From Candidatus Omnitrophota bacterium (GTDB lineage Bacteria; Omnitrophota; Omnitrophia; Omnitrophales; Aquincolibacteriaceae): 64,000 bases of DNA. Location of the stretch: contig JAFGHI010000021.1 of NCBI GenBank assembly GCA_016930235.1, positions 56,810 through 120,809 of the forward strand, given 5' to 3'. Positions 29,004 through 60,232 of the stretch are shown piece by piece. Position 1 is the stretch's first letter, and each line of letters starts with the position of its first letter. The translations under genes and the position numbers were made by a program. The notes beneath the pieces are model-generated. The model was not told where the DNA came from, did not search any database, and worked only from the letters and a program-made list of their open reading frames with translations.

Positions 29004-30472
29004 ACGATCACTCCTCCGGCTACACGGCCTGCTTCCAAAAGCAGCTTCTGGAAGGGGCCCGGGATGTAAAAACCCATCACGAAGATCACGATCAAGCCGA
29101 TGTCGAGAACACTGTCCATCAAGAAACTTTTTTCTGATGCCGGAGACTCCTCCGAAGCGCCAAAAGTCATCCCATTGGCGTGCCTCAAAAAACCGATAAA
29201 GATAAGCGCTAGTAAAACGAGCAAGAAGACGCAAGGAATAAATTTCCCGGCCAGGAATCCTGCGCTTAAAATAAGGAATTCGCTGACAAAAATGCTGAAC
29301 GGCGGCATCCCGGCAATGGCCAAGACACCTAAGAAGAAAATGATGCCCAAAAACGGGTTTTCCAGGAAGATCCCTTTTATCTTACCGATCTCTTTGGTCT
29401 TAAAAAGATAAAGCAGATGCCCGCAACTAAAAAAAAGCATGGATTTTGTGAATGCGTGGTTCACGATGTGAAGGATCGCTGCGTAGGCCCCGAACGCGCC
29501 GCCAAAACCCAGTCCCACGGCCGCAAGTCCCATATGCTCGACACTGGAATAAGCCAGAAGACGTTTATAATCTTTTTGCTCCAGGATAAACGGCGTTGCA
29601 ACAGCAACAGAAAGAACTCCAAATAAAATGAGGAGCGTCCCTGAGAATGCGGATCCAGTCGCAGCTGTGGTCAGAATGTGGAACCTCAGTATTCCCAAAG
29701 TTGCACAGCTTAAAAGCACGCCGGAAAGAAGTGCACTCACGGGGGCTGGAGCCTGGCTGTGCGCATCCGGAAGCCAGGAATGGAACGGCGCGAGACCCGC
29801 TTTGGTTCCGTAACCCACCAGAATAAAAATAAAAGCAAGACGGATAATCTGTGGATCTAACTGTCCGGCCCTGCTCAAAAGGAAGGTCCAATTCAGTAAA
29901 AAAACGTTCTCTCCCGCGCTCACTTGAGCGATCGCCGAATAATAGACCAGGATGATCCCGAAAAGCGCGAGCGCAATCCCGACGCTGCAAAGAATCAGGT
30001 ATTTCCATGCGGCCTCGATCGAACTTTTCTTGTCATCTACGTTGACCAGGAACGCTGAAGCTAGCGTCGTTCCCTCGATCGCGATCCACATAATGCCAAG
30101 ATTATTGGAAAAAACGGTCAAAAGCATGGTGAAAAGGAAAAGATGGAAAAAGAAAGCATACCGTCGAAGCCTTAAAGAAGAGATGCTTGAATCTCCTTCT
30201 TTGAAAAGATATCCCCCCGCATAGACGGCCGAAAGCATTCCTACGCTCGTGATCAGAAGCACAAAGACCGCGGACAGCGAATCCATCATGAGATTCCCGC
30301 TAAAAGCGAACACACGGGGCGACCAGTAAACCCCAAAAACAAAGAGCCATGCTCCGATCGCGGAAAGCACGGCGCCGGTCGTGAACGTCAGTCGCGTCAT
30401 CCTCTTAGGGCAAGGGATCAAACAAAGAAACGCAAAAATAAGGGGCATCCAAAGGACCCTGTCGATCGTCAT
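29000..30472 (-). CDS. antiporter-like membrane subunit (NuoN/HyfF/MnhD family)
   Basis: A 490-aa protein with about 14 TM helices and the conserved blocks AWKYLIL and GLAPFHSWLPDAH. Confidence 0.75.
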   Translation of the reverse strand: MTIDRVLWMPLIFAFLCLIPCPKRMTRLTFTTGAVLSAIGAWLFVFGVYWSPRVFAFSGNLMMDSLSAVFVLLITSVGMLSAVYAGGYLFKEGDSSISSLRLRRYAFFFHLFLFTMLLTVFSNNLGIMWIAIEGTTLASAFLVNVDDKKSSIEAAWKYLILCSVGIALALFGIILVYYSAIAQVSAGENVFLLNWTFLLSRAGQLDPQIIRLAFIFILVGYGTKAGLAPFHSWLPDAHSQAPAPVSALLSGVLLSCATLGILRFHILTTAATGSAFSGTLLILFGVLSVAVATPFILEQKDYKRLLAYSSVEHMGLAAVGLGFGGAFGAYAAILHIVNHAFTKSMLFFSCGHLLYLFKTKEIGKIKGIFLENPFLGIIFFLGVLAIAGMPPFSIFVSEFLILSAGFLAGKFIPCVFLLVLLALIFIGFLRHANGMTFGASEESPASEKSFLMDSVLDIGLIVIFVMGFYIPGPFQKLLLEAGRVAGGVIV

Positions 30473-30476
30473 CGTA

Positions 30477-31136
30477 TTATCCTTTCAAAACGGTCATATC
30501 GTCCGCGTCGATACTTTCAAAAGCATCGCGGATCTTAAAAACAAAAATTCCCATAATCATCGCAGCGACCAACACGTCGAAAAAGATTCCCATCTCGACC
30601 AAAAGCGGCATGCCGAAGGTCATAGTGACAGCCATTAAAAAAAGACCGTTCTCAATTAGAAGCAGGCCGAGAACCTGACTGATCGCTTTTTTCCGGGTCG
30701 TCATCATTAACATGCCGAAAAAGACGGTCGAGACAGCAAGCGGAATGAACTCACTAAAGGCAACCGGTTTCAGGATCTTGCCATCTCCCGTGACATAAAA
30801 CGAAATAAACACAAGCAGAACAGCCAAAAGAAGTGAAAAGGGAATGTTGAAACAACTTTCGACCTCTTTGCGAATCCCGAGCCGCCGGATGATCCTAAAA
30901 AAAACTTGCGGGATCACGATCGTTTTCAGAATAAGCGTCAAAATCGCAGGGACCAACAGATGCTCGACATGGTTCGTGACCGCAATCACCGCAGTAATAA
31001 GCGCGAGTAGGAAAGAGTGCGTTGCGTAGGCACGGATACACGTCCCTATCCGGGAAGACGCGAGGATCCAGAAAGAAGCAATCAGAAGAACCATCCCAAA
31101 AAAATGAATCAGCGAAGCCGCGAGTTCCGGACTCAT
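30477..31136 (-). CDS. HyfE-like small membrane subunit (hydrogenase-4 component E family)
   Basis: A 219-aa protein with 6-7 TM helices. Its position and size match hyfE. Confidence 0.55.
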   Translation of the reverse strand: MSPELAASLIHFFGMVLLIASFWILASSRIGTCIRAYATHSFLLALITAVIAVTNHVEHLLVPAILTLILKTIVIPQVFFRIIRRLGIRKEVESCFNIPFSLLLAVLLVFISFYVTGDGKILKPVAFSEFIPLAVSTVFFGMLMMTTRKKAISQVLGLLLIENGLFLMAVTMTFGMPLLVEMGIFFDVLVAAMIMGIFVFKIRDAFESIDADDMTVLKG

Positions 31137-32083
31137 ACTCCCCTCCCGATCATCAGTTGCCCCAGAAGAGAAAGGATGGCCAGAACAAAAGCCACCGCCA
31201 GAAGGTCCGGGACCCTAAAAAGACGCAATTTCGCAGAATGGATCTCAATCCACCCGATAACAAACGCCAGAAAAAAGACTTTCGCGAGGTAAAGAACCAG
31301 CGACAATCCAAAAGCCAGCGGGTCCCACGAACCCGCAATCCCCCAGGGGAAAAAAAGATCCGACAAGAGTGTCAAAAATACCAGCTGTTTAATCTGATGG
31401 CTCCATTCAATCAGGGCCAGATACCGTCCGGAATATTCAAGGATCATGGCCTCGTGAACCATTGTCAGCTCCAGGTGTGTTGCCGGATTATCCACAGGGA
31501 TCCTTCCACTTTCCGCGATTGTTACGATCAGCAGTGCTCCGAAAGCAAGGCTCGTAAAAAAAAGCATCTGTGTGGGCGATCCGGAAGCGAAATATGAAAC
31601 AATCCCTTCCAGGGACAACGTGTGGGCGCAAAAACCCAAAGAGAAAAAAGCGAGCAGAAGCGCCGGCTCCGCAAGTGACGAAAGCGTCATCTCCCGACTT
31701 GAACCCATACCACCGAACGTAGTGCCAGTGTCCAATGCCGCAAGCGCTAAAAAGAAACGGCCCAAAGCCAGGAGGTAAACAAAGAGGATCACATCCCCCG
31801 TAAAACCAAAAAGAGAACGTATACCTAAAACCGGCAGCATCGAAGCCGCCGCAAAAGTTGACACAAAAAGGACGAAAGGCATGGCATGAAAGATCCAGGA
31901 CGCCGTTTCCGAGATTACCATGTTCTTCCGGAATAATTTCAGTAGATCCGAATAGACCTGGATCAAGCTCGGCCCCACGCGGTTCTGCGAAGCCGCTTTC
32001 ATTTTTTTGATGAACCAGCTAAGCGCAGGCGCCAAAATCGCCAGGAACAAAAGTTGGATAACGGACAAAAGGATCGCCAGCAT
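31133..32083 (-). CDS. NuoH/HyfC/HycD-like membrane subunit
   Basis: A 316-aa protein with 8 TM helices and the NuoH-like blocks RVGPSLIQVYSDLLKL and EYSGRYLALIEW. Confidence 0.7.
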   Translation of the reverse strand: MLAILLSVIQLLFLAILAPALSWFIKKMKAASQNRVGPSLIQVYSDLLKLFRKNMVISETASWIFHAMPFVLFVSTFAAASMLPVLGIRSLFGFTGDVILFVYLLALGRFFLALAALDTGTTFGGMGSSREMTLSSLAEPALLLAFFSLGFCAHTLSLEGIVSYFASGSPTQMLFFTSLAFGALLIVTIAESGRIPVDNPATHLELTMVHEAMILEYSGRYLALIEWSHQIKQLVFLTLLSDLFFPWGIAGSWDPLAFGLSLVLYLAKVFFLAFVIGWIEIHSAKLRLFRVPDLLAVAFVLAILSLLGQLMIGRGV

Positions 32084-34110
32084 CAGGAACGCCCTCCGAA
32101 GAAAAAAAGCAGAAGGATCAGCGTAATAAAAATATAGCTTAAATAAAGCTGGATGTGCCCTGTCTGAATCTGCTTGGCCTTCCGGGATAGAACAGCAACA
32201 AACTCTGACAAAGGTTTATAAACCCATTCATCCACGTGATGCGTAATCTTTGACTCAAAACGCTGTGCAGTCCTGAGCATTGCATGACCTTCATCTTCCA
32301 ACTCCACACGGCGGGTCGGTTGATAGAGAAATGAAAAGATCCGGCGTAAAGGCTTGGAATAACCTGTGGCTGTATACTGCATACGCGGTTCAAGTCCCGG
32401 CATCCCGCAATCCCAGCTGGGACAGATGCGGACAATCTTTTTTCCAAGCAACACCCGCAAAAAGATTACGGCCCCGACCAAAAATGCCGAAAGGATCAAA
32501 GCGATAAGAACCGGGGAAAACTGGCTTGACTCTGAGGGGGATATCAAAAAGGATTTCCGAACCATGGCTCCCATCGGAATATCCGTGCCGGATAAAGTTT
32601 TTGCCACTTTCCCAAGAATAGGCACAATCCATGGAGCCGCCAGGGCCAACCCAAAACAACTCGCGGCCAGGATCCCCATTCCAGCTTTCATGGATCCGCT
32701 CACTTCATGCGCGTGGGCGGCCTGCTCAGAACGGGGCTTCCCTAAAAAGCTGATGCCAAAAGCCTTCACAAAACAGGTGGCCGCCAAAGCACCCGCAAGC
32801 CCAAGAAGCGCGGCTAAAAGCGGTGAAAAAAAACGCAGGGCCGGGCTCGCACCTTCGCATCCCAGCAGAAGCACGATAAAAGTCAGCCATTCGCTCACAA
32901 ATCCATTGAGAGGGGGTAACGCCGAAATCGCAGCCGAACCGATGAAAAAACAAGCGGCCGTCCAGGGCATGTTCCGTATCAAGCCGCCCAAACGCTCGAT
33001 ATCTTTTATGTGGGTGCCAGAAAGAATGGAACCCGCGCCAAGAAAGAGCAGCCCTTTGAAAGTTGCGTGATTTATTACATGATAAAGGGCGGCAATCAGG
33101 GCGAAGGAAGCGTAGAAGGGCTTCTTCGCGGAAGAAAAAACAAGCGCCATTCCAACGCCCAGCAGAATGATCCCGATGTTTTCGATGCTGTGAAAAGCAA
33201 GAAGCCGTTTGAGATCATGTTCCATCAAGGCATAGAGAACACCGAGCAGCGTTGAAAAAATCGCAACCGCAAGCACCGCGGATCCCCACCACGCGGGTAT
33301 CGCGCCAAGAAAGTTAAAAAGGAACAGAAGCAACCCGTAGATCGCCGTTTTGATCATGACTCCTGACATGAGCGCCGAGACATGGCTTGATGCCTGCGGA
33401 TGAGCCTGGGGCAACCAGATGTGAAGCGGGATCACGCCGGCTTTGGTCCCAAATCCGATGAACGCCGCGAGAAAAATAACGTTTTTAAGAACAGGCGGCA
33501 GCGTAACCGCAGCTCCTCTGAATGCATCGAATGAAAAAGAGCCCGCATGGATGTAAAGAAGCAGGAATGCGGCGGTAATAAAAGCGGTCCCCACATGCGT
33601 CATGATCAGGTAAAGCCTCCCGGCAGACAGGGCTTCGGGTCTTTCATGTTCAAAGATCACGAGAAAATAGGACGTAAGAGACATGATCTCCCAAAAAAGG
33701 AGAAAATAGAAAGCATTTTGCACTGTGACCACGAACAGCATCGCAAGAATGAAAAAATTATAGAAGAACCCCAGAAGCGCTATGCTCTTCCTCCCCTGAA
33801 ATTCCCGGGTATAACCGATGGCGAACAGAGAAGCAGCCAATGAAAGAAAAGAAATAATAAGAAGAAAGAAGGCTGAAAAGGGTCCCGCCACGAAGCGTAA
33901 AGCGCCTACCGGGAAACTCCCCTGCAATTCCAGGACCCAGGATCCTCCCGTGAAAAGGATGCCAAGCGAAAAGAGGATGCCCAACGCGCTCGCCAGAACA
34001 GCCAAGCCATGCGTCACGCGGTTCGCTTTTTCTCCGTGTTGTTCAAAAAGAAAACCCGCGATCCCTCCCAATATATGCAGCAACACCTGAACAAAAAATA
34101 ATAATTCCAT
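32083..34110 (-). CDS. NuoL/HyfB/MnhA-like antiporter-like membrane subunit
   Basis: A 675-aa protein with about 16 TM helices and the blocks GVIPLHIWLPQAHP and HATFKGLLF. It is the first gene of the operon. Confidence 0.75.
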   Translation of the reverse strand: MELLFFVQVLLHILGGIAGFLFEQHGEKANRVTHGLAVLASALGILFSLGILFTGGSWVLELQGSFPVGALRFVAGPFSAFFLLIISFLSLAASLFAIGYTREFQGRKSIALLGFFYNFFILAMLFVVTVQNAFYFLLFWEIMSLTSYFLVIFEHERPEALSAGRLYLIMTHVGTAFITAAFLLLYIHAGSFSFDAFRGAAVTLPPVLKNVIFLAAFIGFGTKAGVIPLHIWLPQAHPQASSHVSALMSGVMIKTAIYGLLLFLFNFLGAIPAWWGSAVLAVAIFSTLLGVLYALMEHDLKRLLAFHSIENIGIILLGVGMALVFSSAKKPFYASFALIAALYHVINHATFKGLLFLGAGSILSGTHIKDIERLGGLIRNMPWTAACFFIGSAAISALPPLNGFVSEWLTFIVLLLGCEGASPALRFFSPLLAALLGLAGALAATCFVKAFGISFLGKPRSEQAAHAHEVSGSMKAGMGILAASCFGLALAAPWIVPILGKVAKTLSGTDIPMGAMVRKSFLISPSESSQFSPVLIALILSAFLVGAVIFLRVLLGKKIVRICPSWDCGMPGLEPRMQYTATGYSKPLRRIFSFLYQPTRRVELEDEGHAMLRTAQRFESKITHHVDEWVYKPLSEFVAVLSRKAKQIQTGHIQLYLSYIFITLILLLFFFGGRS

Positions 34111-34409: not shown

Positions 34410-34416
34410 GTGATGA

Positions 34417-34489
34417 CTCCCCCGCCTGGGCTCGAACCAGGGACAAAGCGGTTAACAGCCGCTTGCTCTACCAACTGAGCTACAGGGGA
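34417..34489 (-). tRNA. tRNA-Asn (anticodon GUU)
   Basis: The minus strand reads TCCCCTGTAGCTCAGTTGGTAGAGCAAGCGGCTGTTAACCGCTTTGTCCCTGGTTCGAGCCCAGGCGGGGGAG. It folds as a cloverleaf with a 7-bp acceptor stem, a CTGTTAA anticodon loop and a TTCGAGC T-loop. The 3' CCA is not encoded. Confidence 0.85.
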
Positions 34490-34801
34490 ATGAATCTTCA
34501 AATAACAGTGCGGCTTATCTTCGATCCCCCGCATTATATGCACGTACTGTCGTGCGGTCAATCCATGTTGTCACTCGTAGATGGATGGGGTTCTAACTCA
34601 TTCCCGTTCAAGACATTGAGATAGATTAGTCGACCTTGACCCAACATACTGGGCATACATATATGTCATTTTATAGAATCTTATACCAAATACATAATTG
34701 TAGACTCTTTCTTTATTATGCAATTCGACGGTTGATTCGATAGCTTATAACATATTATATATAAAAGAGATATGTCTTTTCTGAAAATGAATTGATAATG
34801 T

Positions 34802-34866: not shown

Positions 34867-36177
34867 ATGAATTATTGGGTAAAAATAGTATTCAGCTTAT
34901 TGATTCTAATTCCATTATTATGCTCTCCGTCGTCATTCGCCGCTGCGGTGAGTCCTGAGATGTTTGCGGTCAACAATACTTGGATGCTTGTCGCAACGTT
35001 TCTTGTATTTATCATGCATTTAGGATTTGCGACTCTTGAGACAGGATTGACGCGTTCAAAAAACACTGTCAACATCCTTTTCAAAAACACCCTGATCGTA
35101 GCCATTGGAATCCTCACCTATGCGCTTATGGGATTCAATCTCATGTATCCGGGTGAATTTTCCTTGGGTCAATTTTTCGGGTTTGCAGGCTTCGGTATCG
35201 GAACCGATGCCGCCGGCCTTACCAGTGCTTATAACGAGGGGTATACGTATTGGACGGATTTTATGTTTCAGGCCATGTTCGCTGCTACCGCAGCAACCAT
35301 TGTCTCGGGGGCAGTCGCTGAGCGGGTGAAACTCCACAGTTTCCTTATCTTTTCAACGATCTATGTTGCCATTATCTATCCCTTGGTTGGTTCTTGGAAA
35401 TGGGGGGGCGGATGGCTGGATGAGATGGGCTTTTATGATTTTGCAGGTTCCACACTCGTTCATTCCGTCGGGGGATGGGGGGCGTTAGCTGGCGTTCTGC
35501 TACTCGGCCCTCGATTCGGAAAATACGTCAATGAGAACATCAACCCCATTATGGGCCATAGCATGCCGCTTGCAACGATCGGAGTCTTTCTTCTATGGTT
35601 GGGTTGGTTTGGCTTCAACGGAGGTTCGGTTTTATCGGCCAACCCCGGAATGGTATCTTTTGTTTTTGCCACAACCACCCTCGCCGCCGCCGCAGGCATT
35701 GTAGGAGCGATGTTTACAAGCTGGTCGATTCAAAAAAAACCTGATTTATCCATGGTCTTAAACGGTTGCCTGGCGGGGCTTGTCGGTATTACTGCGGGAG
35801 CCGATACGGTTTCAATCGCATCCTCCGTTATCATTGGATTCTTTGCCGGTATCCTGGTCGTTCTTTCGGTGATCTTGATCGACCGTATCCGGATCGATGA
35901 CCCGGTGGGTGCTATTTCCGTCCATTTAGTCTGCGGAATTTGGGGCACTCTTGCCGTCGGAATCTTTAGCACCAACCCGGAACACAGCTTCGGAGTACAA
36001 CTAATCGGTGTTTTGGCAGCCGGGGCAATGTGTTTTACCAGTGCATTTCTCATTTTTGGCCTGTTAAAACTAACTTTAGGTATCCGTGTCAGCCAGGACG
36101 AAGAACTCCGCGGTTTGGATGTGGGAGAACATGGTATGGAAGCCTATAACGGTTTTCAAATTTTCACAACACAATAG
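34867..36177 (+). CDS. amtB: ammonium transporter
   Basis: A signal peptide is followed by 11 TM helices with the Amt blocks DFAGSTLVHSVGGW and LGWFGFNGGS. An AAAGGAG Shine-Dalgarno is present. Confidence 0.9.
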   Translation: MNYWVKIVFSLLILIPLLCSPSSFAAAVSPEMFAVNNTWMLVATFLVFIMHLGFATLETGLTRSKNTVNILFKNTLIVAIGILTYALMGFNLMYPGEFSLGQFFGFAGFGIGTDAAGLTSAYNEGYTYWTDFMFQAMFAATAATIVSGAVAERVKLHSFLIFSTIYVAIIYPLVGSWKWGGGWLDEMGFYDFAGSTLVHSVGGWGALAGVLLLGPRFGKYVNENINPIMGHSMPLATIGVFLLWLGWFGFNGGSVLSANPGMVSFVFATTTLAAAAGIVGAMFTSWSIQKKPDLSMVLNGCLAGLVGITAGADTVSIASSVIIGFFAGILVVLSVILIDRIRIDDPVGAISVHLVCGIWGTLAVGIFSTNPEHSFGVQLIGVLAAGAMCFTSAFLIFGLLKLTLGIRVSQDEELRGLDVGEHGMEAYNGFQIFTTQ

Positions 36178-36204
36178 TCTTAGATTAAAATGGAGGATGA
36201 AATC

Positions 36205-36546
36205 ATGAAACTTGTCATTGCCTATATTCAGCCGGAACGGTTAACCCCCGTTAAACAATCGCTCTATGATGCTGAAATCTATAAAATGTCGGTCACCAAT
36301 GCCCTTGGGTGCGGACAACAAAAGGGTTATCACGAAAGTTACCGAGGCACCGACATCGAAGTCAATCTCTTGAAGAAAGTACGCCTTGAGATTGCAGTAA
36401 ACGATGATTATGTCCAACAAACGATTGATGCAATCATCAAAGGCGCGAGAACAGGTAAGATCGGGGACGGAAAGATCTTTGTCCTGGATCTGCCGGAATG
36501 CATCCGGATCCGGACCGGCGAAAAAAGCCAAGACGCCATCGGCTAA
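36205..36546 (+). CDS. glnK: nitrogen regulatory protein P-II
   Basis: [13 protein letters not shown], the T-loop YRGTDIEV (Tyr51) and the KIGDGKIFV block are present. A GGAGG Shine-Dalgarno sits 8 nt upstream. The start is set at MKL, not at the ORF-track Met. Confidence 0.85.
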
Positions 36547-36684: not shown

Positions 36685-37917
36685 TTAAGAAATAATTTTG
36701 GGGAATGTTAGGATAAATTTTGTGCCCTTGCCAATTTCACTTTCAACGGCAATCTTCCCGTGATGAGCCTTCACAGTCTTATCAATCACCATGAGACCAA
36801 GCCCCGTCCCCTTTTCTCCTTTCGTTGAGAAAAAGGCCTGAAAAAGCTTCGCCCGAACCTCTTCACTCATCCCCTGTCCATTATCCTCAACCGTGATTTG
36901 ATAGGTATCCGGATCCACAGAAAAGACGCGGATACGGACAAAGGATTTCTCTTGGCGGCAAGCCTCAAGGGCATTTTTGACGATATTTAACAATGACCGA
37001 TAGATCGACTGATATTCCATATCAACCTGCGGAAAGTTCTCCTCTACCTGAAAATCAAGTTCTGCATTAAACTGACGGGCCTTCTCCTCCAAGTCACCTT
37101 GGAGTTCTTTCAGGAGATCCTTCGGATCCACTTTTTGGGCTTCAATCTTGTAGTCTTTCGTCAAACTCAGCATCTCATAAACAAAACCATTCATATTCTT
37201 GATCGCTTTTTCCATCCCCTTCATCCCGCGCTTGAGAAATTCCTGATTACCCTTTTCAATCCCCCGCTTGAGCCAATCTGATGAAAAGGTTGCCAGCTGA
37301 ATAATATTTTTGACTTCATGAAGAACCATGCTGACCGTCTGCCCGATCGCCGCAAGCCTTTCCATCTTGATATTCTGCTCATAAAGGAGAATGTTTTTGA
37401 GCGCTCCCGCCATTTGAGCCGCCAGGTTGGCAGCCGCTTCCAAATCCGGCCCCGAAAAACCTTCCGATGCAGAATCACGCACAAAACAGGCAATCCCAAT
37501 CTCGGTATTCCGGACAATCAACGGAACAAAGAGAGCTTTCCCGGTACAAACTGGCTGACCTTTTTGAAAATGCGCCTTCGCCTCCTCAACCAGATTCCCG
37601 GGTAATTGACCGGCTGGATCCGAACTGGATTCTAACCATAATTGATCCTCAGCTCCCGACAAGAAAAGATACCCGCCGCAGGCATGGACAAAGGCCTGAA
37701 CACTTTCGACAAAGAAATCACAGAGAAGCTTCTTGTCGAGGAAGGAATTGTAGATTTTCCCCACTTCATGGATTGATTGATGATCCCGATCCAATGAGCA
37801 CATGGTCGGCATCTTAACGAATGTCGATACGAATTGCAAGCCTCGAACAACATGAAAATATTGTCGTTTCGAGCCATTTCCATTATAATTCATGATCACA
37901 TAAACGAATATTCCCAT
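36685..37917 (-). CDS. GAF-domain sensor histidine kinase
   Basis: It has an H-box (LHEVKNIIQ), N/G boxes (VEDNGQGM and GTGLGLMVIDK) and an N-terminal GAF-like region. The start is uncertain: the ORF track runs to 38022 and would overlap the divergent kinase gene, so I chose the internal Met at 37917. Confidence 0.6.
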   Translation of the reverse strand: MGIFVYVIMNYNGNGSKRQYFHVVRGLQFVSTFVKMPTMCSLDRDHQSIHEVGKIYNSFLDKKLLCDFFVESVQAFVHACGGYLFLSGAEDQLWLESSSDPAGQLPGNLVEEAKAHFQKGQPVCTGKALFVPLIVRNTEIGIACFVRDSASEGFSGPDLEAAANLAAQMAGALKNILLYEQNIKMERLAAIGQTVSMVLHEVKNIIQLATFSSDWLKRGIEKGNQEFLKRGMKGMEKAIKNMNGFVYEMLSLTKDYKIEAQKVDPKDLLKELQGDLEEKARQFNAELDFQVEENFPQVDMEYQSIYRSLLNIVKNALEACRQEKSFVRIRVFSVDPDTYQITVEDNGQGMSEEVRAKLFQAFFSTKGEKGTGLGLMVIDKTVKAHHGKIAVESEIGKGTKFILTFPKIIS

Positions 37918-37929
37918 AGGCCATAAAAA

Positions 37930-38370
37930 ATGAAACCTTCGGTCCAAGAACAATTTGAAATCAAAAGCGACCCCAAAGAGCTTCAGGGCCTTAGGGAAAA
38001 GGTGAGTCGCCTTATTCATCAACTGGAATTTTCAGAAAAAGCCGCCAATGATATTCTTGTCGCCTTGGGGGAAGGATGCACGAACGCCACCCGTCACTCC
38101 TATGAGGGGAAACTCGACCAACCCATCCATATTCGCATCGAAGGCGATTCAAAAAAAATAAAAATCAGCATTCGTGATTTCGGCCGGAAAATAGACCTCT
38201 CGAAAATTAAAACACCCAAGCTCCCTCCCGATAAACCGGGAGGTCTCGGGATTTATTTCATGCAGACAATGATGGATCAGATCGAGTATAATACCAAGCA
38301 CCCCGAGGGGAATGAGCTTATCTTGACCAAATACAACGAACAAGGAGAATCCCGTGAAAATCCAAGTTAA
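37930..38370 (+). CDS. RsbW/SpoIIAB-family anti-sigma-factor-type serine protein kinase (HATPase_c)
   Basis: It has an N box (EGCTNATRHSY), a G1 box (RDFGRKID) and a G2 box (GGLGIYFM). The 146-aa size fits. Confidence 0.7.
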   Translation: MKPSVQEQFEIKSDPKELQGLREKVSRLIHQLEFSEKAANDILVALGEGCTNATRHSYEGKLDQPIHIRIEGDSKKIKISIRDFGRKIDLSKIKTPKLPPDKPGGLGIYFMQTMMDQIEYNTKHPEGNELILTKYNEQGESRENPS

Positions 38371-38692
38371 GCAAGAGTCCGAAGGCCTTGAATTAGTGGA
38401 ACTTCAAGGGGATCTTGATTTCCACTGTTCACCGGAACTCCGGGAAGCCCTCTCCAAGTTAGTGGATCGTCAGGCCTCAAAAATCCTTATCGACCTCAAA
38501 CAAGTGGGTTATGTCGACAGTTCCGGACTTGCGACATTTGTCGAGCTTTTCCAGAAAATGAAACGTTACGGGGGAAAACTCGTACTCTTTAATCTCACAC
38601 AAAGCGTCCGCAGTGTTTTTGAGATTGCGAAGCTGGATTCCATCTTCAAGCTCGCTCAAAACCGGGAAGAAGCGCTCACGCTTGCCCAATGA
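38354..38692 (+). CDS. STAS-domain anti-sigma-factor antagonist / MlaB-like protein
   Basis: A 112-aa STAS fold with GYVDSSGLATF, which matches the SpoIIAA DSSGLG phospho-serine motif. It overlaps the kinase gene by 17 nt and mlaE by 4 nt. Confidence 0.7.
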   Translation: MKIQVKQESEGLELVELQGDLDFHCSPELREALSKLVDRQASKILIDLKQVGYVDSSGLATFVELFQKMKRYGGKLVLFNLTQSVRSVFEIAKLDSIFKLAQNREEALTLAQ

Positions 38693-39498
38693 CAAAATTA
38701 GAATCTTATTTCGGATCTATCGGGAAAACAACGCATCAGTTTCTTATCGAAGTGGCCAAAATATGGCAGCTGGTCACTGATTTCTTCTACTGGGCTATCC
38801 TTGCCCCCTTTAAAGGCAAAAAAAGCTTTGGCCGGGAGGCTTTTTCAAGACAGCTTTTCTTCATGGGGAATGAATCCCTCTTTATCGTTGCACTCGTCTC
38901 TGCCTCTGTAGGGGCCGTCTTAGCCCTTCAAGCAGCCTATCAGTTAAAGGAATTCGGTGCCCTCATGTACACAGGCGCATTAGTCAGTGTCTCCATGGCC
39001 CGAGAATTAGGTCCTATCATCACCGCCATTGTGATTGCGGGGCGAGTCGGCGCAAGTATCACCGCAGAGCTTGGCACAATGAAAGTGCAGGAAGAGGTCG
39101 ATGCACTCGTTACCATGGGAATCCCGCCCATTCCTTTCTTGGTCGTTCCGAGGATCCTCGCTATTATCATCATGCTTCCCAGCTTAACCGTCCTGAGTTA
39201 TGCCATTGGGATCCTTGGCGGCTATCTCATTTCAACAACCAGCTTGGGGATCGGTTCAGAAGTTTATCTCCAAGAAAGCTTTGATGCCTTAGTCGCCAAA
39301 GATCTGATGACAGGTTTGGCCAAAAGTTTTGTTTTCTCCCTTTTAGTTGGGTTTATTGCAATTTATACCGGCCTAGGCGTCCGCGGCGGCGCCGAAGGAG
39401 TCGGCCGCGCAACAACACAATCGGTTGTGGCATCCATTATTGCCATCATCGTTGCTGATGGTATTTGCACAGCCGTCTTTTACTATGTGTTCCCATGA
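38689..39498 (+). CDS. mlaE: phospholipid ABC transporter permease MlaE
   Basis: A 269-aa protein with 5-6 TM helices in the MlaE/Ttg2B family. Confidence 0.8.
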   Translation: MTKLESYFGSIGKTTHQFLIEVAKIWQLVTDFFYWAILAPFKGKKSFGREAFSRQLFFMGNESLFIVALVSASVGAVLALQAAYQLKEFGALMYTGALVSVSMARELGPIITAIVIAGRVGASITAELGTMKVQEEVDALVTMGIPPIPFLVVPRILAIIIMLPSLTVLSYAIGILGGYLISTTSLGIGSEVYLQESFDALVAKDLMTGLAKSFVFSLLVGFIAIYTGLGVRGGAEGVGRATTQSVVASIIAIIVADGICTAVFYYVFP

Positions 39499-40301
39499 GT
39501 GAACCCGTTATCGAAATTCGAAACGTTCAGAAATGGTTCGGAGAAAGAAGAGTCTTAACGGGTGTCAACGTTGACGTCCATGAAGGAGAAACCCTTGTGA
39601 TCATGGGCGGATCCGGCTGCGGTAAAAGTACACTTCTGCGGGCCATTATCGGCCTTATGCACCCAGAAGAAGGCTCCATCAAAATCTTCGGTCAAGACAT
39701 GGCCTCCGCAACCGATGATGAAAAGAATGAGATCCGGAAAAAATTCGGTATGCTCTTTCAAGGTTCCGCCCTTTTTAATTCCCTGACGGTCGGTGAAAAT
39801 GTCGCGCTTCCTTTAAAGGAACACACAGATCTTGATGATGATATTATTAATATTATCGTAAAAGTAAAACTGGAATTGGTCGGCTTAACCGGATTTGAGA
39901 GTCTCAAACCCTTTGAAATCTCAGGCGGGATGAAAAAAAGAGTCGCTTTGGCCCGGGCCATAGCCTTAGACCCCAAAATCGTTTTCTATGATGAGCCGGG
40001 GGCTGGTTTGGACCCGATCACGGCCAGTGTAATTGACCACTTGATTATGGACCTGAGTAAAAAACTCAAGATGACCTCTGTCGTCGTTACGCATGAAATG
40101 ACAAGCGCCTTTAGGATTGCCGACCGGATCATTGTCCTGCAGCAAGGAAAGGTGGTCGCAGAAGGCGGTCCAGAGGCTATCCGGAAGTCTGATCATCCTT
40201 ACGTAAAGCAATTTATCCATGGTGAAATTGACGGACCTATCTCTTTTAAAGAATCTCGAGACAGTTATTTGAAAGGAATCTTTGGCGATGAAGAAATCTG
40301 A
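39495..40301 (+). CDS. mlaF: phospholipid ABC transporter ATP-binding protein MlaF
   Basis: It has a Walker A (GGSGCGKST), an ABC signature (ISGGMKKRVALARA) and a Walker B (VFYDEPGAGLD). The start at MSEPVIEI overlaps mlaE in an ATGA motif. Confidence 0.85.
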   Translation: MSEPVIEIRNVQKWFGERRVLTGVNVDVHEGETLVIMGGSGCGKSTLLRAIIGLMHPEEGSIKIFGQDMASATDDEKNEIRKKFGMLFQGSALFNSLTVGENVALPLKEHTDLDDDIINIIVKVKLELVGLTGFESLKPFEISGGMKKRVALARAIALDPKIVFYDEPGAGLDPITASVIDHLIMDLSKKLKMTSVVVTHEMTSAFRIADRIIVLQQGKVVAEGGPEAIRKSDHPYVKQFIHGEIDGPISFKESRDSYLKGIFGDEEI

Positions 40302-40923
40302 TCCCTATACCCCAAATGAAATACGCTCCGGTTTAATGGTTGTCAGTTGTGTTGTGGTTCTGCTGGGCCTGCTTTTCTTTGCCAGTAAATCCCAGCTCTT
40401 TAAGCAAACCTACCAAGCTGACATCCTTTTTAACTACATCAGTGGTCTTGCCAAGAATGCCCCTGTTCATTTTGCCGGCCACGAAGTCGGGAAAGTCACG
40501 GACATCCGCTTCTTAGGCGGTTCGGATAATTCCGTCCTTGTCACCGTTACGATCAGCCGCGATGTTGTCCTCAAAAGGGACTCCCGGGCTTTCATCAACG
40601 TCCTGGGTTTTATGGGTGAAAAATTTATCGAGATCAGTCCTGGCACGATCGAAGCCCAGCCCCTTGGGAAGGGCGCCACGCTTCGAGGAGATGACCCTGT
40701 CGCCATGATGGAGGTTGTCAAGAAAGGTACTGAAATCTTGGCAGAGTTTGAGAAGATCTCTGTCTCTCTTCAAAACCTGATTGCCAATATGAATGATCTC
40801 CTGGGCGAAAATGAAGAAGAGGTTGAAGATATTTTCAAGAATTTGGATGAAGCTTCCGTCAACCTAAAAGAAATGACGGCGGACCTTAAACAAAAACCCT
40901 GGAAGTTACTAAGGAAGGGTTAA
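40282..40923 (+). CDS. mlaD: MCE-domain protein MlaD
   Basis: An N-terminal TM anchor is followed by an MCE domain (VHFAGHEVGKVTDI) and a C-terminal coiled coil. Confidence 0.8.
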   Translation: MAMKKSDPYTPNEIRSGLMVVSCVVVLLGLLFFASKSQLFKQTYQADILFNYISGLAKNAPVHFAGHEVGKVTDIRFLGGSDNSVLVTVTISRDVVLKRDSRAFINVLGFMGEKFIEISPGTIEAQPLGKGATLRGDDPVAMMEVVKKGTEILAEFEKISVSLQNLIANMNDLLGENEEEVEDIFKNLDEASVNLKEMTADLKQKPWKLLRKG

Positions 40924-53697: not shown

Positions 53698-56600
53698 TTA
53701 TGTTGATAAATTTTTTCTGTCAACTCCAATCGATTCACGAACTCTTAAGACCCATCCCCGATTTTTCGCAAAGTCTTTGGCTCTCCCTGTCAATTCTTCA
53801 GAAATTAAAATAAAATGAGGGAGAATGAAAAGCGTTAAAAACGTAGAACTTAAAAGTCCGCCGATCACAGTGATCGCAAGCGGTGACCATAAATCGCTGG
53901 ATTGTCCCCATTTTAAGGCCATCGGCAAAAAACCAAAAACCGTCGAAAATGTCGTCATCAAAATCGGTCGCAACCGGTCACATCCCGCATGGACTAGAAT
54001 TTCCCGTTCTGTCGCGCCCTCCGTTTTTAAATGATTCATACGGTCTACCAAAATAATAGCAGCGTTAACAACATACCCCGCAAGCAAAATCATGCCGATA
54101 AAAACCTGCTGGCTCAAGGGGGTTTTAGTAATGACCAAGGCAACCCAAATCCCGACGCCGGCCATCGGGACCGAAATCATCACAAGCAAAGGCTGAATAT
54201 AACTTTGGAAAAGACAGGCCAGTACCATATAAACGAGGAAAATCGTAAGAATAAGTGCCAGAGTAAGTTCTGACTTCCCCTTCATCAACTCTTCGTAAGC
54301 CCCTCCAAAACGCCAATAATAATCATCCGGCATTTCTACTCCGGTAAGAGATTCTTTGACTTCGCGAGCTATCGCTTCAAGCGGCCTCTTTGTATCCCCC
54401 TTCACAAAGACGTAACGATATTTATCTTTCCGATCGATTGTTTGCGGTCCTACAGACGGATAAAAATTGGCAATCTCCCCTAATGGGATTTGAGTCCCCG
54501 ATTTAGTGGCAATGTGAATAAGCTTCAAATCCTCGATCTTTTGCCGGTAAATCGCCTGAAGACGGGTAATCGTCTCAATTTCCTCTCCCTTTGATAATTC
54601 ATGAAACTTTGTCGGGCGCATTCCTCTCACTTGAGCATGCATCGAATCGGCAACGTCACTAACCGTCAAGCCATAGAGAGCTGCACGCCCTTTATCGACA
54701 ACCAAAGAATATTCAGGCCTTTTCCTGAGGTCTGTCATCACTAAATTGATCAAACCCGGAACCTTGGACATACGATTAGCAAACTCAAGCGCAAGCTTTT
54801 CCAACACATCATTTTCATGACCGAAAATATTAACAATCAATTTCTTTTGTTCGCTTGAACTTGCCCCTTCATCAACAATTAAACTGTAATCATCGTGTAT
54901 TTCTTTGATGGCTTCATTGCCTTTCTCATCCACAATCTGCATAATTTCATCTTTGGAGAATTGACGTTCTTTGCTCGGTTTTAAACGGACGAAAATCTTG
55001 ACATCATCTTTCCGCACCGTTGAAGAAAACATCTCAACGTCCGAAATTTTTGAAAGAATATTTTCCAATCTTTTCACAGCGTCATCATTCGTATCCAGCT
55101 TTGCACCTGCCAACGGGAACACAACTATCGCAAATTCATTTTCTTGAAGGGTCGTCGGCCAATCCATATCCCTTTTCTTTAACATTCCTATGGAACCTAA
55201 GGTAATCATCGCAATTAAACCCATGGCGATCGAACGTTGAAGTAAACTCCGGCTCAAGGTCCATGCAATAACATAACGGTAGACACCAGGAACTAAGAGA
55301 AAACCAAAAACGGAAAAAACGATCCCAAAAGCAATGAAAGTCAAAATAGAGCCCCAGAAAACACCTTTCATCAACACCCCTTGCCAGAAAGAGATAAGGA
55401 GAATAAAAATAAATGCGCCGGCCGCGATCCGAAAAAGTCTTCGGTGCTTGCCCGGAAAATAATCCCTTAACCAAATCAATCTGCTCCGCCACCAATCGCC
55501 CAAGGAAGTCGGTTTGATTTCGATCTTGCCTTGAGCCCAACTGGTTAAAAGCATAGGCACGAGCATCTGAGCAACAAAAAATGATGCGATCAGAGAAGCG
55601 CAAACAGTAAACGCAAAACCCGCATAAACAATTTGGATTTTCTTGTCGATGAAAACAACGGGCAAGAAAACAATCAGCGTCGTAATGAGCGAGGCCAATA
55701 AAGGCAACCATACTTCTTCAGCCCCCTGACGGATTGCAATGATATCATTAGCTCCATGCTCCTTTTTGGTAAAAACATTTTCCAATATCACAACAGTACT
55801 GTCGACAAGGATTCCCACTGCTAATGCCAATCCGCTCAAAGTCATCACGTTAATGCTGATCCCCATAAACTTCATAAAGAAAAAGGTGCAAACAACAGAT
55901 GCGGGGATAGAAATCAAAACAATAAGAGCAAGAACCATTTGCCTCAAAAATAAATAAATAATCGCAATGGCAAGAAACATCCCAATAAAAAGTGCCGTTC
56001 GAACATCATGGATAGCGCGGGAAATCATCTCCGCCTTGTCTGAAACAACAATAATGTCCAGGGCATCCTTGTATTCTTTCTCAAAATCATCTAAGACCTG
56101 GCGGGTCATCTTAATCACCGGAATGGTATTCGATAAACTTGTCTTCTTAATGTAGACCGTAACATTTTGCTCGAGATTCAAACGGGCATAATCGGCAGGT
56201 TCGAGATATGAATCCTTGATCACCGCTATTTCTTTTAGCGGGATAATAGACCCCTGTCTCGTTGCATGAACACCTAGCTCCCCAACCTCTTCAACACTTT
56301 CAAAAGCACCCATGCTACGGACAGCAATCTCGAACTTCCCCCGGTCGAAACTCCCCGCCAGAAGATTGATATTGCTTTGCCCAAGGATATCCATCACCTT
56401 CCCAATGGGAATGTTATAAGCCACCATCTTGTCCCGATCTAATTCAACCAGGATTTTCCTCTCCCGGCCGCCGTAAACTTCAACGCTCGCAACCCCATCC
56501 ACTCGTGCAAGAACCGGTTTTAATTCTGTCTCTACTAAATCCCGAACCTCTTCAGGAGACAAACTCTCCGAGGTCAACGCAAAAACAAAAACAGCGGCTT

Positions 56601-57006
56601 GCGCATCGTCATAATTAGCTATCACCGGTTTTTCGATTTCTCGCGGCAAGAGTGGCCGCACACGAGCAAACTTTTCACGAACTTCAAGAGCTGCAAATTT
56701 CATGTTGGTTCCCGGCTCAAATTCCATAGTGACTCGGGATTCTGCTTCGCGGGAATTGGAGTAAAGGTTCTTAAGATGTGAGACTGTCGCTGTGACTTCT
56801 TCGACCAAGCGGGTAATTCTTTTTTCAACCTCTAACGGGGGAAGACCTCCTCGAGCACGGATAATGATGCTGATAATCCCGGTATTCTGCCCTTGGTAAA
56901 GCTCAACAGGAAGGCGTGAAAGGGATATAAGCCCCATGATAATAAGGCCCAGAAAAACCATCGCGGTTAAAACAGGCCTTCGAATGGAAAAAGATGGCAA
57001 TCCCAT
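53698..57006 (-). CDS. RND efflux transporter permease (second of a tandem pair, MdtC-like position)
   Basis: About 1100 aa with 12 TM helices. The start at MGLPSFSIRRPV lies 1 nt after the upstream RND stop. Confidence 0.85.
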   Translation of the reverse strand: MGLPSFSIRRPVLTAMVFLGLIIMGLISLSRLPVELYQGQNTGIISIIIRARGGLPPLEVEKRITRLVEEVTATVSHLKNLYSNSREAESRVTMEFEPGTNMKFAALEVREKFARVRPLLPREIEKPVIANYDDAQAAVFVFALTSESLSPEEVRDLVETELKPVLARVDGVASVEVYGGRERKILVELDRDKMVAYNIPIGKVMDILGQSNINLLAGSFDRGKFEIAVRSMGAFESVEEVGELGVHATRQGSIIPLKEIAVIKDSYLEPADYARLNLEQNVTVYIKKTSLSNTIPVIKMTRQVLDDFEKEYKDALDIIVVSDKAEMISRAIHDVRTALFIGMFLAIAIIYLFLRQMVLALIVLISIPASVVCTFFFMKFMGISINVMTLSGLALAVGILVDSTVVILENVFTKKEHGANDIIAIRQGAEEVWLPLLASLITTLIVFLPVVFIDKKIQIVYAGFAFTVCASLIASFFVAQMLVPMLLTSWAQGKIEIKPTSLGDWWRSRLIWLRDYFPGKHRRLFRIAAGAFIFILLISFWQGVLMKGVFWGSILTFIAFGIVFSVFGFLLVPGVYRYVIAWTLSRSLLQRSIAMGLIAMITLGSIGMLKKRDMDWPTTLQENEFAIVVFPLAGAKLDTNDDAVKRLENILSKISDVEMFSSTVRKDDVKIFVRLKPSKERQFSKDEIMQIVDEKGNEAIKEIHDDYSLIVDEGASSSEQKKLIVNIFGHENDVLEKLALEFANRMSKVPGLINLVMTDLRKRPEYSLVVDKGRAALYGLTVSDVADSMHAQVRGMRPTKFHELSKGEEIETITRLQAIYRQKIEDLKLIHIATKSGTQIPLGEIANFYPSVGPQTIDRKDKYRYVFVKGDTKRPLEAIAREVKESLTGVEMPDDYYWRFGGAYEELMKGKSELTLALILTIFLVYMVLACLFQSYIQPLLVMISVPMAGVGIWVALVITKTPLSQQVFIGMILLAGYVVNAAIILVDRMNHLKTEGATEREILVHAGCDRLRPILMTTFSTVFGFLPMALKWGQSSDLWSPLAITVIGGLLSSTFLTLFILPHFILISEELTGRAKDFAKNRGWVLRVRESIGVDRKNLST

Positions 57007-57007
57007 C

Positions 57008-60000
57008 TTATACCATCTCTTCCTCGTCGTCACTCCCCAGAATGCGTTCGGTTAAACGGACGACAAAAATATAAAGACAGGGAACAACGATCAGTGTAAG
57101 AAACGTGGCGGATAATAATCCCCCCATCACCGTAATGGCAAGAGGCCTTCTTAACTCCGCGCCTTCTCCGAATCCCATAGCAAGAGGAATCAACGCTACA
57201 ACAGTCGTCAGGGCGCTCATCAGGATAGGACGAGTTCTGATTTTTGCAGCCTGAACCGTTGCCTCAGCAAGCTCCATCCCCTCTTCACGCAATTGATTGA
57301 TATATTCAATCAAGACAATCCCGTTATTGACGACAACACCCCCTAAGACAATAATTCCTATAAAAGAGATAATATTGAGTGAAGTCCCTGTCAGCCATAA
57401 TGCTATCGCCACACCAAAAAATGCCAGCGGTACCGTAATCATAATAATCAGCGGTTGAACAAATGACTCAAAGAGGGATGCCATAATCATATAAACAAGC
57501 ATGATGGAAAGGGCAAAAGCAAACGTCACCATAGCAAAACTTTCTTTGATCTCGCGCGCTTTTCCGGAGAGAACAACTTGAAAATCCTGAGGAACATCAA
57601 TGGTCTTTAGAATATCCTGGACATTCGCTAAAACATCCTTCGTTTTCTTACTTTTAAGGATATCGGCTTCGACAATAACCGTCCTTTCCTGATCCATGCG
57701 GCGGATCTCACTGGGGCCCAAACCTCTTTGAACCTGAGCCACTTCTTTGATGGGGATAAAAGCATCCAAAACCTGAGAATAAAGAAGAAGATCATTGATA
57801 TTATCAAGATTTTCGCGATCTTTTTCGCTTAAGCGTACCCGAACATCAATTTCCTTACCGCCTTCCCGGTATTCGGTAGCTACAACCCCATCAATGGCAG
57901 CCTTGGCTGTGAGGGAAATGTCTAAAGCGGATATCCCATAGAGGGCCGCTCGCCGCTTATCAATTTCGAGCTTTGTCTCAGGAGAAGGCTCCCCGATATT
58001 GTCCTGAATATTCATAACCCCTGAAATCGATGCCAGTTTTTTTTCTATGCGATCAACCAAATCACTCATAGTATCAAAATCATACCCTTTCACCTCAACT
58101 ACAATCGGCTTTGTCGCACCAGCTTTTGCAAACTCCTGAAACTCACTTTCCTGAACAATGAAATCAACCGTCGCTTTTTCAAGATCCAAATCCTTGACGT
58201 GCCCCCAGATACTTTGGACAATTTCAGAGGATGATTTTTTTCTATCTTTTTTTAGACTCACAAGAATTAAGGCCTGCGAGGGTCTCAATGTTTCAATCTT
58301 GACCTCTCCCCGGCTTGTTTTCTCAGACCCGATCGTTGTAGCGACATCTTGAACATCTTTAAGAGTATGAAGATAATCTTCGATCTTCTTACAAATTCCA
58401 TTCGTAATTTCCAGCCGTGTCCCAATCGGCATATCAACCTTAACCAAAAATTGCCCCTGGTCAACCTTGGGAAGAACTTCCCGGTCTAACGTGGGATAGA
58501 TGACGAAGATGATGGCACAAAGGCCAATCACAGCAAGAAAAACCATCCAAATAAACCTGTTCTGTTTCGCGCGAGACGCTCCCTGGAGAAAATTCCTCTC
58601 TAAAATCCCGGCCCAAGGAATCGGCCGATAATGCTTTGCCTGCATCTTCAAATAGGTTGAAAGCATTACGACAAGAGTAAGAGGAATAATGATGGCAATC
58701 ACAAGAGCAAAAATCACAGTCAAGGAAAGATCTTTCGTAATCTGTCCCAAAATACCTGGAACGAAAAGGATCAAAGGGAAAAAGACGGCAATGGTTGTAA
58801 GGTTTGAAGCAATAACCGCCCACATCACTTCTTGGGCACCGTAAATGGCCCCTTGTTCAACCCCATCCCCTAATTGATGCCGCCGGTAAATATTCTCTAA
58901 AACAACGATGCTCGTATCCACAATCATCCCAACGGCTAACGCCAGTCCTCCTAATGACATAATGTTAAGCGTAATTCCGCTAACCCCCATCATGAAGAAA
59001 ACACCCATGATCGTGATGGGGATGGACACCGTGACAAGAAGAGAAGCATACGTTGACCGCAAAAAGAGAAAAAGGATGATAAACGCAAGAAAACCTCCGG
59101 CCAAAGCTTCATTGAAAAGGTTTCTTAATGACTGGCGAATAAACGTAGAATGATCATAAATAATATCGTACCGCAGGCCTCGCGATTCTACGTCCTCTTT
59201 CAGAAATTCAAGCTCTTTCTTGAGCCGGTCAACCACTTCAATGGTATTGGCGCCAGCTTGTTTCTGGATTGAGATCGAAAGATTCTCTTTCCCATTAAAT
59301 CTTGAAATGCTCGTCTTTTCAGCAAATCCGTCAATAATATTGGCAATATCTCGCGTCAGGACCAAACGCTTCTCCAAAAGCTGCTCGGCCAAATCTGCCC
59401 GTTCCCCATCAATGGTTGCCCGGGGGCCCCGCTGTCCACCTTTTTCGACGAAACTAGTATCTTGGCGTCTTAATTCTTCCACCACATCCGCTCCGACCAC
59501 TGCATAGCCTATCTCTTTGACGGATCGGAATTCTCCCACCGTACGGATAAGGTACTCATACAACCCTTTTTTGATGCTCCCGGCCGGATAAGAAATATTC
59601 GATTCATCAATAGAGTCGATAACATCAAGAAGGGAGAGGTGATTCGCCATCAAACGCCCCTGATCGATTTCGACTAAGATTTCTCGATCGACACCGCCCG
59701 AGATAGTTGCAGAGGCTACCCCTTCGACTTTCTCAAGGTTATCTTTCAGCATTTTTTCAGAAAGCAACTTCAAACGGATGGGCTCAAGATCTTTCCCTGT
59801 CACGGAAAGAATCATAATAGGGCGGGCCAAAGGATCAAATTTCAAGATCACAGGGTCTTCGGCTTCCTTGGGGAGTCTCTCTTTAATCAGGTCGATCTTT
59901 TCTCTTACGGCAAGCGCGGCAAAATCAATGTCCTGGCCCCAATTAAACGAAACAACAATTGTGCTCCGCCCTTCCCGAGAAACAGATTCGATCCTTTTTA

Positions 60001-60229: not shown

Positions 60230-60232
60230 GCA

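Follow-up and report, generated by a model that had tools for sequence, protein, structure and literature searches.

The locus described here raises the question of what a serine kinase of the RsbW/SpoIIAB type and a STAS protein of the RsbV/SpoIIAA type do in an operon for a lipid transporter. The locus occupies positions 37930-40923 of a 64-kb stretch of DNA from an uncultured Candidatus Omnitrophota bacterium (the window, which is the whole stretch analyzed) and consists of five overlapping genes on the + strand, encoding the kinase, the STAS protein and the transporter proteins MlaE, MlaF and MlaD. For the control of Mla activity, E. coli offers no handle. The answer favored here, with a probability of about 0.6, is that the STAS protein serves as the substrate of the kinase and as the functional counterpart of MlaB, such that its phosphorylation would gate MlaF in an MlaEFD transporter. 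The original prediction, that a kinase gates Mla through a STAS protein, is supported as far as sequence comparison reaches. The gene content, the conservation of the motifs, the conserved linkage of the genes and the co-variation of MlaF with the presence of STAS are direct observations.

Organization of the operon

The genes were assigned from the list of open reading frames (ORFs) and from matches to Pfam and NCBIfam. Coordinates are those of the window, and features are on the + strand unless stated otherwise; evidence is given in brackets.

37930-38370, +: kinase, a GHKL serine kinase of the RsbW/SpoIIAB type, 146 amino acids (PF13581 HATPase_c_2, E 1e-27)
38354-38692, +: STAS protein, single domain, 112 amino acids, RsbV/SpoIIAA type (PF01740, E 6e-24)
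38519-38521, +: codon of Ser56, the predicted phospho-acceptor in D55-S-S-G-L59 (sequence and alignments)
38689-39498, +: MlaE permease, 269 amino acids (PF02405, 1.8e-75; TIGR00056)
39495-40301, +: MlaF, ATPase of an ATP-binding cassette (ABC) transporter, 268 amino acids, with an ISGGM signature and a C-terminal extension of ~25 amino acids (best NCBIfam match PRK11831)
39843-39866, +: helix face I117/I120/I121/V124 in the helical subdomain of MlaF, a candidate STAS contact (class-discriminating columns)
40227-40298, +: C-terminal extension of MlaF, EIDGPISFKESRDSYLKGIFGDEEI (alignment with E. coli MlaF)
40288-40923, +: MlaD, 211 amino acids, with an N-terminal membrane anchor, one MCE domain and a C-terminal helix (PF02470, 1.2e-17)

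Translation starts were refined with gene calls on an identical 3.9-kb Logan contig and with hidden Markov model (HMM) alignments. The start of mlaF is thereby placed at ATG 39495 rather than TTG 39465, and that of mlaD at ATG 40288. The overlaps along the operon are 17 nucleotides (kinase/STAS), 4 nucleotides (STAS/mlaE), 4 nucleotides (mlaE/mlaF) and 14 nucleotides (mlaF/mlaD); the series of five overlapping + strand genes described earlier is thus confirmed, with refined overlaps of 4-17 nucleotides. An AAGGAG Shine-Dalgarno sequence lies 6 nucleotides 5' of the GTG start of the STAS gene. The kinase and the STAS protein had been said to be 'fused' into the mla operon, a wording that has to be withdrawn since none of the proteins in the window are fused; the genes form a single operon.

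The transporter genes are assigned to their families with differing closeness. MlaE scores 242.3 bits against TIGR00056 (cut-off 212.2) and MlaD 64.4 bits against PF02470 (cut-off 25.1). The score of MlaF against PRK11831, 239.8 bits, is under the cut-off of 441, and the protein is therefore a member of the MlaF family rather than an equivalog of the E. coli type. It matches the MlaF proteins of A. baumannii (232 bits) and E. coli (202 bits) in alignments that run through residue 258. Genes for MlaC and MlaA are both absent from the operon.

The kinase and its predicted substrate

RsbW and SpoIIAB are the best NCBIfam matches of the kinase, both under the equivalog cut-offs. The N box (E48/N52/H56), the G1 box (D83-x-G85) and the G2 box (G105-L106-G107) are present. 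Across 18 orthologues, E48, N52, R55, H56, D83, G85 and G105-L106-G107 are invariant, and in 42-44 of 44 Mla-linked kinases, drawn from several phyla, E48, N52, H56, D83, G85, G105 and G107 are retained. The AlphaFold2 (AF2) model, with a predicted local distance difference test (pLDDT) score of 87.6, matches SpoIIAB with template modeling (TM) scores of 0.79-0.86 and matches RsbW as well. PF13581, the conserved residues and the model agree with the earlier assignment to the RsbW/SpoIIAB type. The ATP lid, the loss of which would mark a dead kinase, is present and merely shorter, by ~4 residues relative to that of SpoIIAB and ~8 relative to that of RsbW in HMMER alignments.

The STAS protein scores 82.8 bits against TIGR00377, the anti-sigma-factor antagonist family (cut-off 53.45). 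Its AF2 model (pLDDT 92.6) is made up of five strands and four helices, with helix 2 beginning at residue 56, and superimposes on RsbV with a root-mean-square deviation of 1.1 Å and on SpoIIAA with a TM score of 0.90. DSSGL occupies residues 55-59, and Ser56 is aligned with Ser58 of SpoIIAA, as had been proposed, and by alignment offsets with Thr52 of E. coli MlaB. These residue equivalences were taken from PDB alignments; approximate sequences of E. coli MlaB and B. subtilis SpoIIAA were used as probes only. The acceptor serine is kept in all 18 STAS copies from Omnitrophota and Auribacterota, and every stand-alone STAS copy from the metagenomes has either Ser or Thr at this position.

In the SpoIIAA/SpoIIAB complex the equivalent serine is located in the kinase active site (PDB 1TH8/1TID), and these entries were the best structural matches in the model comparison. 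In E. coli MlaB, T52 lies centrally in the interface with MlaF; the T52E change lessens binding to MlaF, and with T52A no ATPase activity is left (PMC5016091, PMC7367683). Among relatives, conservation is much higher for the STAS protein (identity of 64-89% across the 120 best matches) than for the kinase (41-59%). Such a difference fits a small protein on which two or more binding partners might impose constraints.

Co-variation of MlaF with STAS

The tail of the window MlaF can be aligned with those of A. baumannii, P. aeruginosa and E. coli MlaF to residues 258-264. Y258, I262 and F263, in the tail YLKGIF, align exactly with Y261, L265 and L266 of E. coli MlaF, which insert into a groove that lies between MlaB and the MlaF helical subdomain (Kolich et al., PMC7367683). 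In Veillonella, which lacks MlaB, the MlaF extension is shorter (PMC10665443). When HMM-anchored tails were compared, the motif Y-[LIVM]-x-x-[LIVM] was found in 37 of 39 STAS-linked MlaF proteins and in 0 of 23 others (Fisher p 5e-15, which overstates independence, as the compared loci are related by descent). The STAS-linked MlaF proteins fall into at least three clusters of the MlaF tree. At one locus with STAS, L087, the tail is EPDGPVPLKLSPEDYIDRLL and includes YIDRLL; the STAS-less sister clade (L071) lacks the motif, and its tails start like that of L087 and then lose the Y helix.

Apart from the tail, the two STAS classes are best told apart by MlaF columns 120, 124 and 117, which lie on one helix face. 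With STAS these positions are I, V, M, L or T, and without STAS they are E, K, Q or R. A hydrophobic helix face is the pattern expected for a surface that a partner would cover. The published text, which lists no residues, places the MlaB site on the MlaF helical subdomain, so we infer that this site matches the face of helix 117-124. Since both the tail motif and the helix face track a stand-alone STAS gene, it is argued that STAS binds MlaF as MlaB does.

A tie between STAS and the transporter is also indicated by ORFs in which STAS is fused to MlaE (L062:3-1097, L061:121-1248, L054:203-1366, L118:4233-5627); an MlaE extension that resembles STAS occurs in addition in L073:522-1604. The fusions are without a kinase in cis. 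Some have the acceptor Ser/Thr, and the residue is Ile in L118 and Ala in L073. The broadened STAS HMM, of 712 positions (long ORFs included), does not detect E. coli MlaB; a lenient renewed search for STAS in the STAS-less loci, which included the approximate E. coli MlaB query, returned only noise (E>3) besides the STAS::MlaE fusions. Thus L118, which had been scored as having none, carries a fused STAS domain without the acceptor serine.

Conservation of the arrangement

The linkage was followed from the kinase side and from the MlaE side. In the kinase-side scan, which took one genome per species and covered 41 loci with HMM annotation, the order kinase-STAS-MlaE-MlaF(-MlaD) was present in 16 distinct loci with kinase identities of 35-59% (the window, L002, L006, L008, L010, L013, L014, L017-L022 and L023-25, the last being UBP3/Auribacterota). 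L131 is a 17th distinct locus from Omnitrophota/Auribacterota with the arrangement. The full five-gene order occurs in L002, L006 and L008, the kinase homologues of which are 41-55% identical and the upstream genes of which differ; across the loci the upstream flank may hold a histidine kinase, HD-GYP, rib genes or a PP2C. The 24 more distant RsbW-like kinases belong to ordinary PP2C/STAS modules, and none of them is accompanied by Mla.

The MlaE-side sample consisted of the best 80 metagenome relatives of MlaE (38-53% identity), 63 of which were informative, i.e., had enough upstream sequence. Kinase and STAS genes lie directly upstream of MlaE in 28 of the 63, a stand-alone STAS gene without a kinase in 5, and no stand-alone STAS gene in 30. 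The soil group among these loci is Acidobacteriota (2406 kinase homologues at E<=1e-10), and L130 (Ca. Acidoferrum) has the order kinase-STAS-MlaE-MlaF-MlaD-ABC_trans_aux, with SpoIIE encoded next on the opposite strand. Because the arrangement recurs from both sides, the linkage is widespread and not peculiar to the window genome; the conservation in related genomes that was to be checked is thus borne out by 17 Omnitrophota/Auribacterota loci and by the 28 metagenome loci. Chance adjacency was considered and rejected, as the arrangement recurs with unlike flanks across three phyla (Omnitrophota, Auribacterota and Acidobacteriota). On a contig of acidobacterial type (L093:1724-4556), an ORF for a sigma factor resembling the extracytoplasmic function (ECF) type and a PAS-PP2C gene precede STAS-MlaEFD, and there is no kinase in cis.

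Proposed mechanism

In the mechanism proposed, of which STAS-MlaF binding, Ser56 phosphorylation, the sign of its effect and the identity of the signal are what we infer, unphosphorylated STAS would dock on the helical subdomain of MlaF, and the C-terminal helix of the neighboring MlaF would pack against it. Docked STAS would stabilize or activate the MlaF ATPase on MlaE. The co-translated kinase would bind the same face of STAS and phosphorylate Ser56, which would release STAS from MlaF and turn transport down. Removal of the phosphate by a PP2C, which in relatives often has a membrane anchor and a CHASE2 or PAS sensor, would restore transport; in the window genome this PP2C would be encoded outside the window.

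The mechanism can be placed in a broader scheme, to which we give even odds. STAS would alternate between the kinase and MlaF through the same Ser56-centered face, in a partner switch that acts on an ABC lipid transporter as its output. Phospholipid trafficking would have its rate set post-translationally by envelope-sensing PP2C proteins (CHASE2 or PAS), joined in some lineages by HD-GYP::kinase fusions. Such switches would be widespread in Omnitrophota, Auribacterota and Acidobacteriota and could be ancestral to the kinase-less MlaB of proteobacteria.

Several observations weigh against gating of MlaF by STAS. By sequence and predicted fold, STAS is an antagonist of the RsbV/SpoIIAA type and not an orthologue of MlaB. 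It scores 33.3 bits against NCBIfam mlaB_1 (cut-off 90), E. coli MlaB is only the 31st Foldseek match to its model (TM 0.65/0.75), and PDB MlaB entries match STAS with E values of only 4e-4 to 0.27. The shared descent of the loci lowers the weight of the tail statistics. The MlaF of L118, a locus with fused STAS, lacks the tail motif, and the co-variation therefore holds for stand-alone STAS only. Searches of the 64-kb window with tblastn, HMMs and phmmer revealed no PP2C, no receiver domain and no second STAS. Finally, mlaEFD is absent in cis at three loci that have the same divergent histidine kinase as the window:

L004:6001-6428: kinase only
L012:7986-9024: kinase and STAS
L011:1891-3210: HD-GYP::kinase and STAS

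In L004 the ftsK start is 4 nucleotides past the kinase stop. Because of these three loci, the kinase/STAS pair can exist apart from Mla.

Alternative explanations

The strongest alternative, itself unlikely, is a classical partner switch for a sigma factor or another route to transcription. According to this explanation the kinase is an anti-sigma factor, STAS is its antagonist and mlaEFD is merely co-transcribed as part of the same stress response, without STAS touching MlaF. That kinase and STAS are closest in sequence and fold to RsbV/RsbW and SpoIIAA/SpoIIAB speaks for it, as do the persistence of the kinase, or of kinase and STAS, without mla in L004, L011 and L012 and the conservation in 41 of 44 kinases of R22, which aligns with R20 of SpoIIAB. 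Arguing against it is the lack of any sigma-factor gene called within 6-7 kb at six Pfam-annotated loci. The gene order, moreover, is kinase-STAS-permease and not STAS-kinase-sigma, mere co-transcription leaves unexplained why the tail and helix face of MlaF track STAS, and STAS::MlaE fusions exist.

Somewhat less probable still is an output through the kinase, which would bind and inhibit MlaF or MlaE as an 'anti-transporter', while unphosphorylated STAS would sequester the kinase as RsbV does RsbW. This would follow canonical RsbW/SpoIIAB logic and suits a kinase that is encoded by the first gene and is nearly always accompanied by STAS (28 loci with both versus 5 with STAS only). However, STAS-only operons (L087, L107, L119, L128), like E. 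coli, keep the MlaF tail motif without a kinase in cis, so that STAS, and not the kinase, is the likelier partner of MlaF, and it is STAS that is the better conserved of the two. Least probable of all is that the transporter acts as a sensor, with STAS a constitutive MlaB-like subunit, its access to the kinase controlled by the transport state of MlaF and the output elsewhere, as in flux-sensing Bce-type ABC systems: the MlaF-STAS co-variation fits either direction of information flow, and kinase and STAS persist beside the histidine kinase without mla in some genomes, but no output gene is conserved beside the module across phyla, and the sensor domains sit on PP2C (CHASE2, PAS) and on HD-GYP::kinase fusions, which suggests that the signal enters through the phosphatase or the kinase and not through the transporter.

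Phosphatase and possible signal input

For the STAS-MlaF cycle proposed above, a PP2C was to be sought in the genome. None is encoded in the 64-kb window, as stated, but in many relatives a PP2C gene stands directly beside the operon. It is directly 3' of mlaD in L006, L008, L013, L014 and L022, with CHASE2-SpoIIE architecture by Pfam in L006 and L008, and directly 5' of the kinase in L023-25; a PP2C is also present in 16 of the 28 metagenome loci with kinase and STAS and in L130. Overall, a PP2C (SpoIIE) is found in cis at about half of the loci with the arrangement. Since it adjoins mlaD or the kinase, many relatives have the transporter bracketed by all three members of the triad (kinase, STAS and phosphatase). 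For the window lineage, the phosphatase must be either encoded outside the window or lacking from the lineage. No second kinase of the same type was found in the 64-kb window.

An HD-GYP domain with the motif HHENFDGSGYP is encoded directly 5' of the Mla-linked kinase in several Omnitrophota and is absent from the window. It is part of one ORF with the kinase in L131:5907-7004 and L011:1222-2322 (365 and 367 amino acids) and forms separate genes in L006:5342-6004, L019:7141-7863 and L020:7216-7995. This placement hints at an input of cyclic di-GMP (c-di-GMP), or of a related signal, into the kinase.

A histidine kinase gene diverges from the operon of the window and is separated from the serine kinase gene by 117 base pairs, in which a promoter-like sequence was noted:

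36685-37812, -: histidine kinase, divergent, cytoplasmic, with H-box LHEVKN, HATPase_c and a weak GAF-like N-terminus (HATPase_c, 1.7e-23)
37861-37889, +: candidate promoter-like site TTGTCG-17-TATAAT (10/12 matches)

The start of the histidine kinase is most likely at 37812, as orthologues align from residue ~4-8; the mechanical ORF extends to 38022. Residues 215-444 are covered by NCBIfam alignments of the AtoS/ZraS type. The earlier description as a GAF histidine kinase is correct with regard to the divergent upstream position, whereas the GAF assignment is below the cut-off (17.6 bits versus 28.6), with E 0.005 only for GAF_2/GAF_3. The same divergent position upstream of the kinase is found for this gene in 13 Omnitrophota loci, three of them without mla, and the gene is absent from other lineages. 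The histidine kinase may provide input to the module in the window lineage; as a universal signal source it was rejected, being confined to one lineage of Omnitrophota. The promoter-like site lies ~40 nucleotides 5' of the kinase ATG and remains only a candidate because the region contains no more of these sites than expected from shuffling.

Relation to known systems

The locus combines features of two well-known systems. With the MlaFEDB transporters of E. coli, A. baumannii and P. aeruginosa it shares the MlaE, MlaF and MlaD families, the LSGGM-type signature (ISGGM in the window), the C-terminal Y-x3-ΦΦ helix of MlaF and one small STAS gene per operon, with the acceptor aligned with T52 of MlaB. 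It differs in its full-size STAS protein of the RsbV/SpoIIAA type, where MlaB is minimal (97 amino acids), in the gene order (kinase-STAS-E-F-D instead of F-E-D-C-B), in the lack of MlaC in the operon and in having a kinase in cis, joined in relatives by a PP2C; E. coli MlaB has no known kinase (PMC7367683). Its resemblance to the RsbV-RsbW-RsbU/P and SpoIIAA-SpoIIAB-SpoIIE systems of B. subtilis lies in the N/G1/G2 boxes of a GHKL kinase, the DSSG acceptor serine of STAS and, in relatives, PP2C, and RsbV/RsbW and SpoIIAA/SpoIIAB are the best structural matches for the two window proteins. Unlike these systems, the locus has no sigma-factor gene, its genes stand in the reverse order, its kinase has an ATP lid 4-8 residues shorter, and its module forms part of an operon for an ABC lipid transporter, with which it is translationally coupled.

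Partner switches that do not act on sigma factors are exemplified by HptB-HsbR-HsbA of P. aeruginosa, SypE-SypA of V. fischeri and BtrU/V/W of Bordetella, in which the output is carried by STAS and not by a sigma factor, and the phosphorylation state of STAS sets the action on the target protein. The HenR-All4160 switch of Anabaena, described in a 2026 preprint, acts on an envelope-polysaccharide enzyme (bioRxiv 10.64898/2026.04.08.717354). The target proposed here differs from all of these in being the nucleotide-binding subunit of an ABC lipid transporter, and in the literature no description was found of a partner switch that targets the ATPase of such a transporter. SLC26/SulP proteins and STAS::MlaE (DUF140) fusions resemble the locus in that they join STAS, as an element for regulation or assembly, physically to a membrane transporter. 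The STAS::MlaE fusions, noted earlier (PMC1810536, PMC5016091), are unlike the window locus in the absence of a cis kinase, in the lack of the acceptor serine in some of them and in the missing tail motif in L118 MlaF.

It had been claimed that phospho-gating of Mla was undescribed. This holds in part: phospho-regulation of MlaB through Thr52 was proposed by Thong et al. 2016 (PMC5016091) and Kolich et al. 2020 (PMC7367683), both of whom stated that there was no evidence for it and that no kinase was known. Grasekamp et al. 2023, who found MlaA, MlaB and MlaC to be sparsely distributed and proposed an MlaEFD core, do not mention kinases (PMC10665443); Casali and Riley noted STAS neighbors and fusions, not kinases (PMC1810536). 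Full-text literature searches, with subscription-only papers outside their scope, revealed no description of an Mla operon linked to a kinase or PP2C. The cognate kinase and phosphatase encoded with the Mla operon thus appear to be the new element.

Operons with their own kinase, and often a phosphatase, are natural systems in which the hypothesis of MlaB phosphorylation becomes directly testable. If gating of MlaF by STAS is true, partner switching extends beyond transcription and controls an ABC transporter directly, lipid trafficking is linked to envelope sensor domains (CHASE2), and the reason that MlaB is a STAS protein becomes clear. The MlaF tail motif offers a simple sequence marker that would predict Mla systems with a STAS subunit.

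Surroundings of the operon

The mlaD gene ends 6 nucleotides from a convergent ftsK gene. As the window encodes resistance-nodulation-division (RND) pumps and a TolC-like outer-membrane protein, the host is diderm, and an Mla system is plausible there. Two tandem RND pumps (1111 and 1073 amino acids), an HlyD-type membrane-fusion protein and the TolC-like outer-membrane efflux protein (OEP) are encoded at 53698-63245 (-), an arrangement resembling a heteromeric efflux operon of the MdtABC type, and a further RND pump, the third, is located at 12027-15161.

On the other side of the operon, two + strand genes lie just upstream of the histidine kinase; reading of the translations alone names their products as an ammonium transporter (34867-36177) and, for the second, a P-II protein (36190-36546). 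They are preceded by a tRNA-Asn (GTT) at 34415-34490 (-) and by a cluster at 26505-34110 (-) resembling membrane-bound [NiFe]-hydrogenase/complex I (Complex1_49kDa, Complex1_30kDa, NiFeSe_Hases, Proton_antipo_M), in which the GC content rises up to about 0.50 and the AT skew of the + strand is strongly positive (0.17-0.31) relative to the remaining window.

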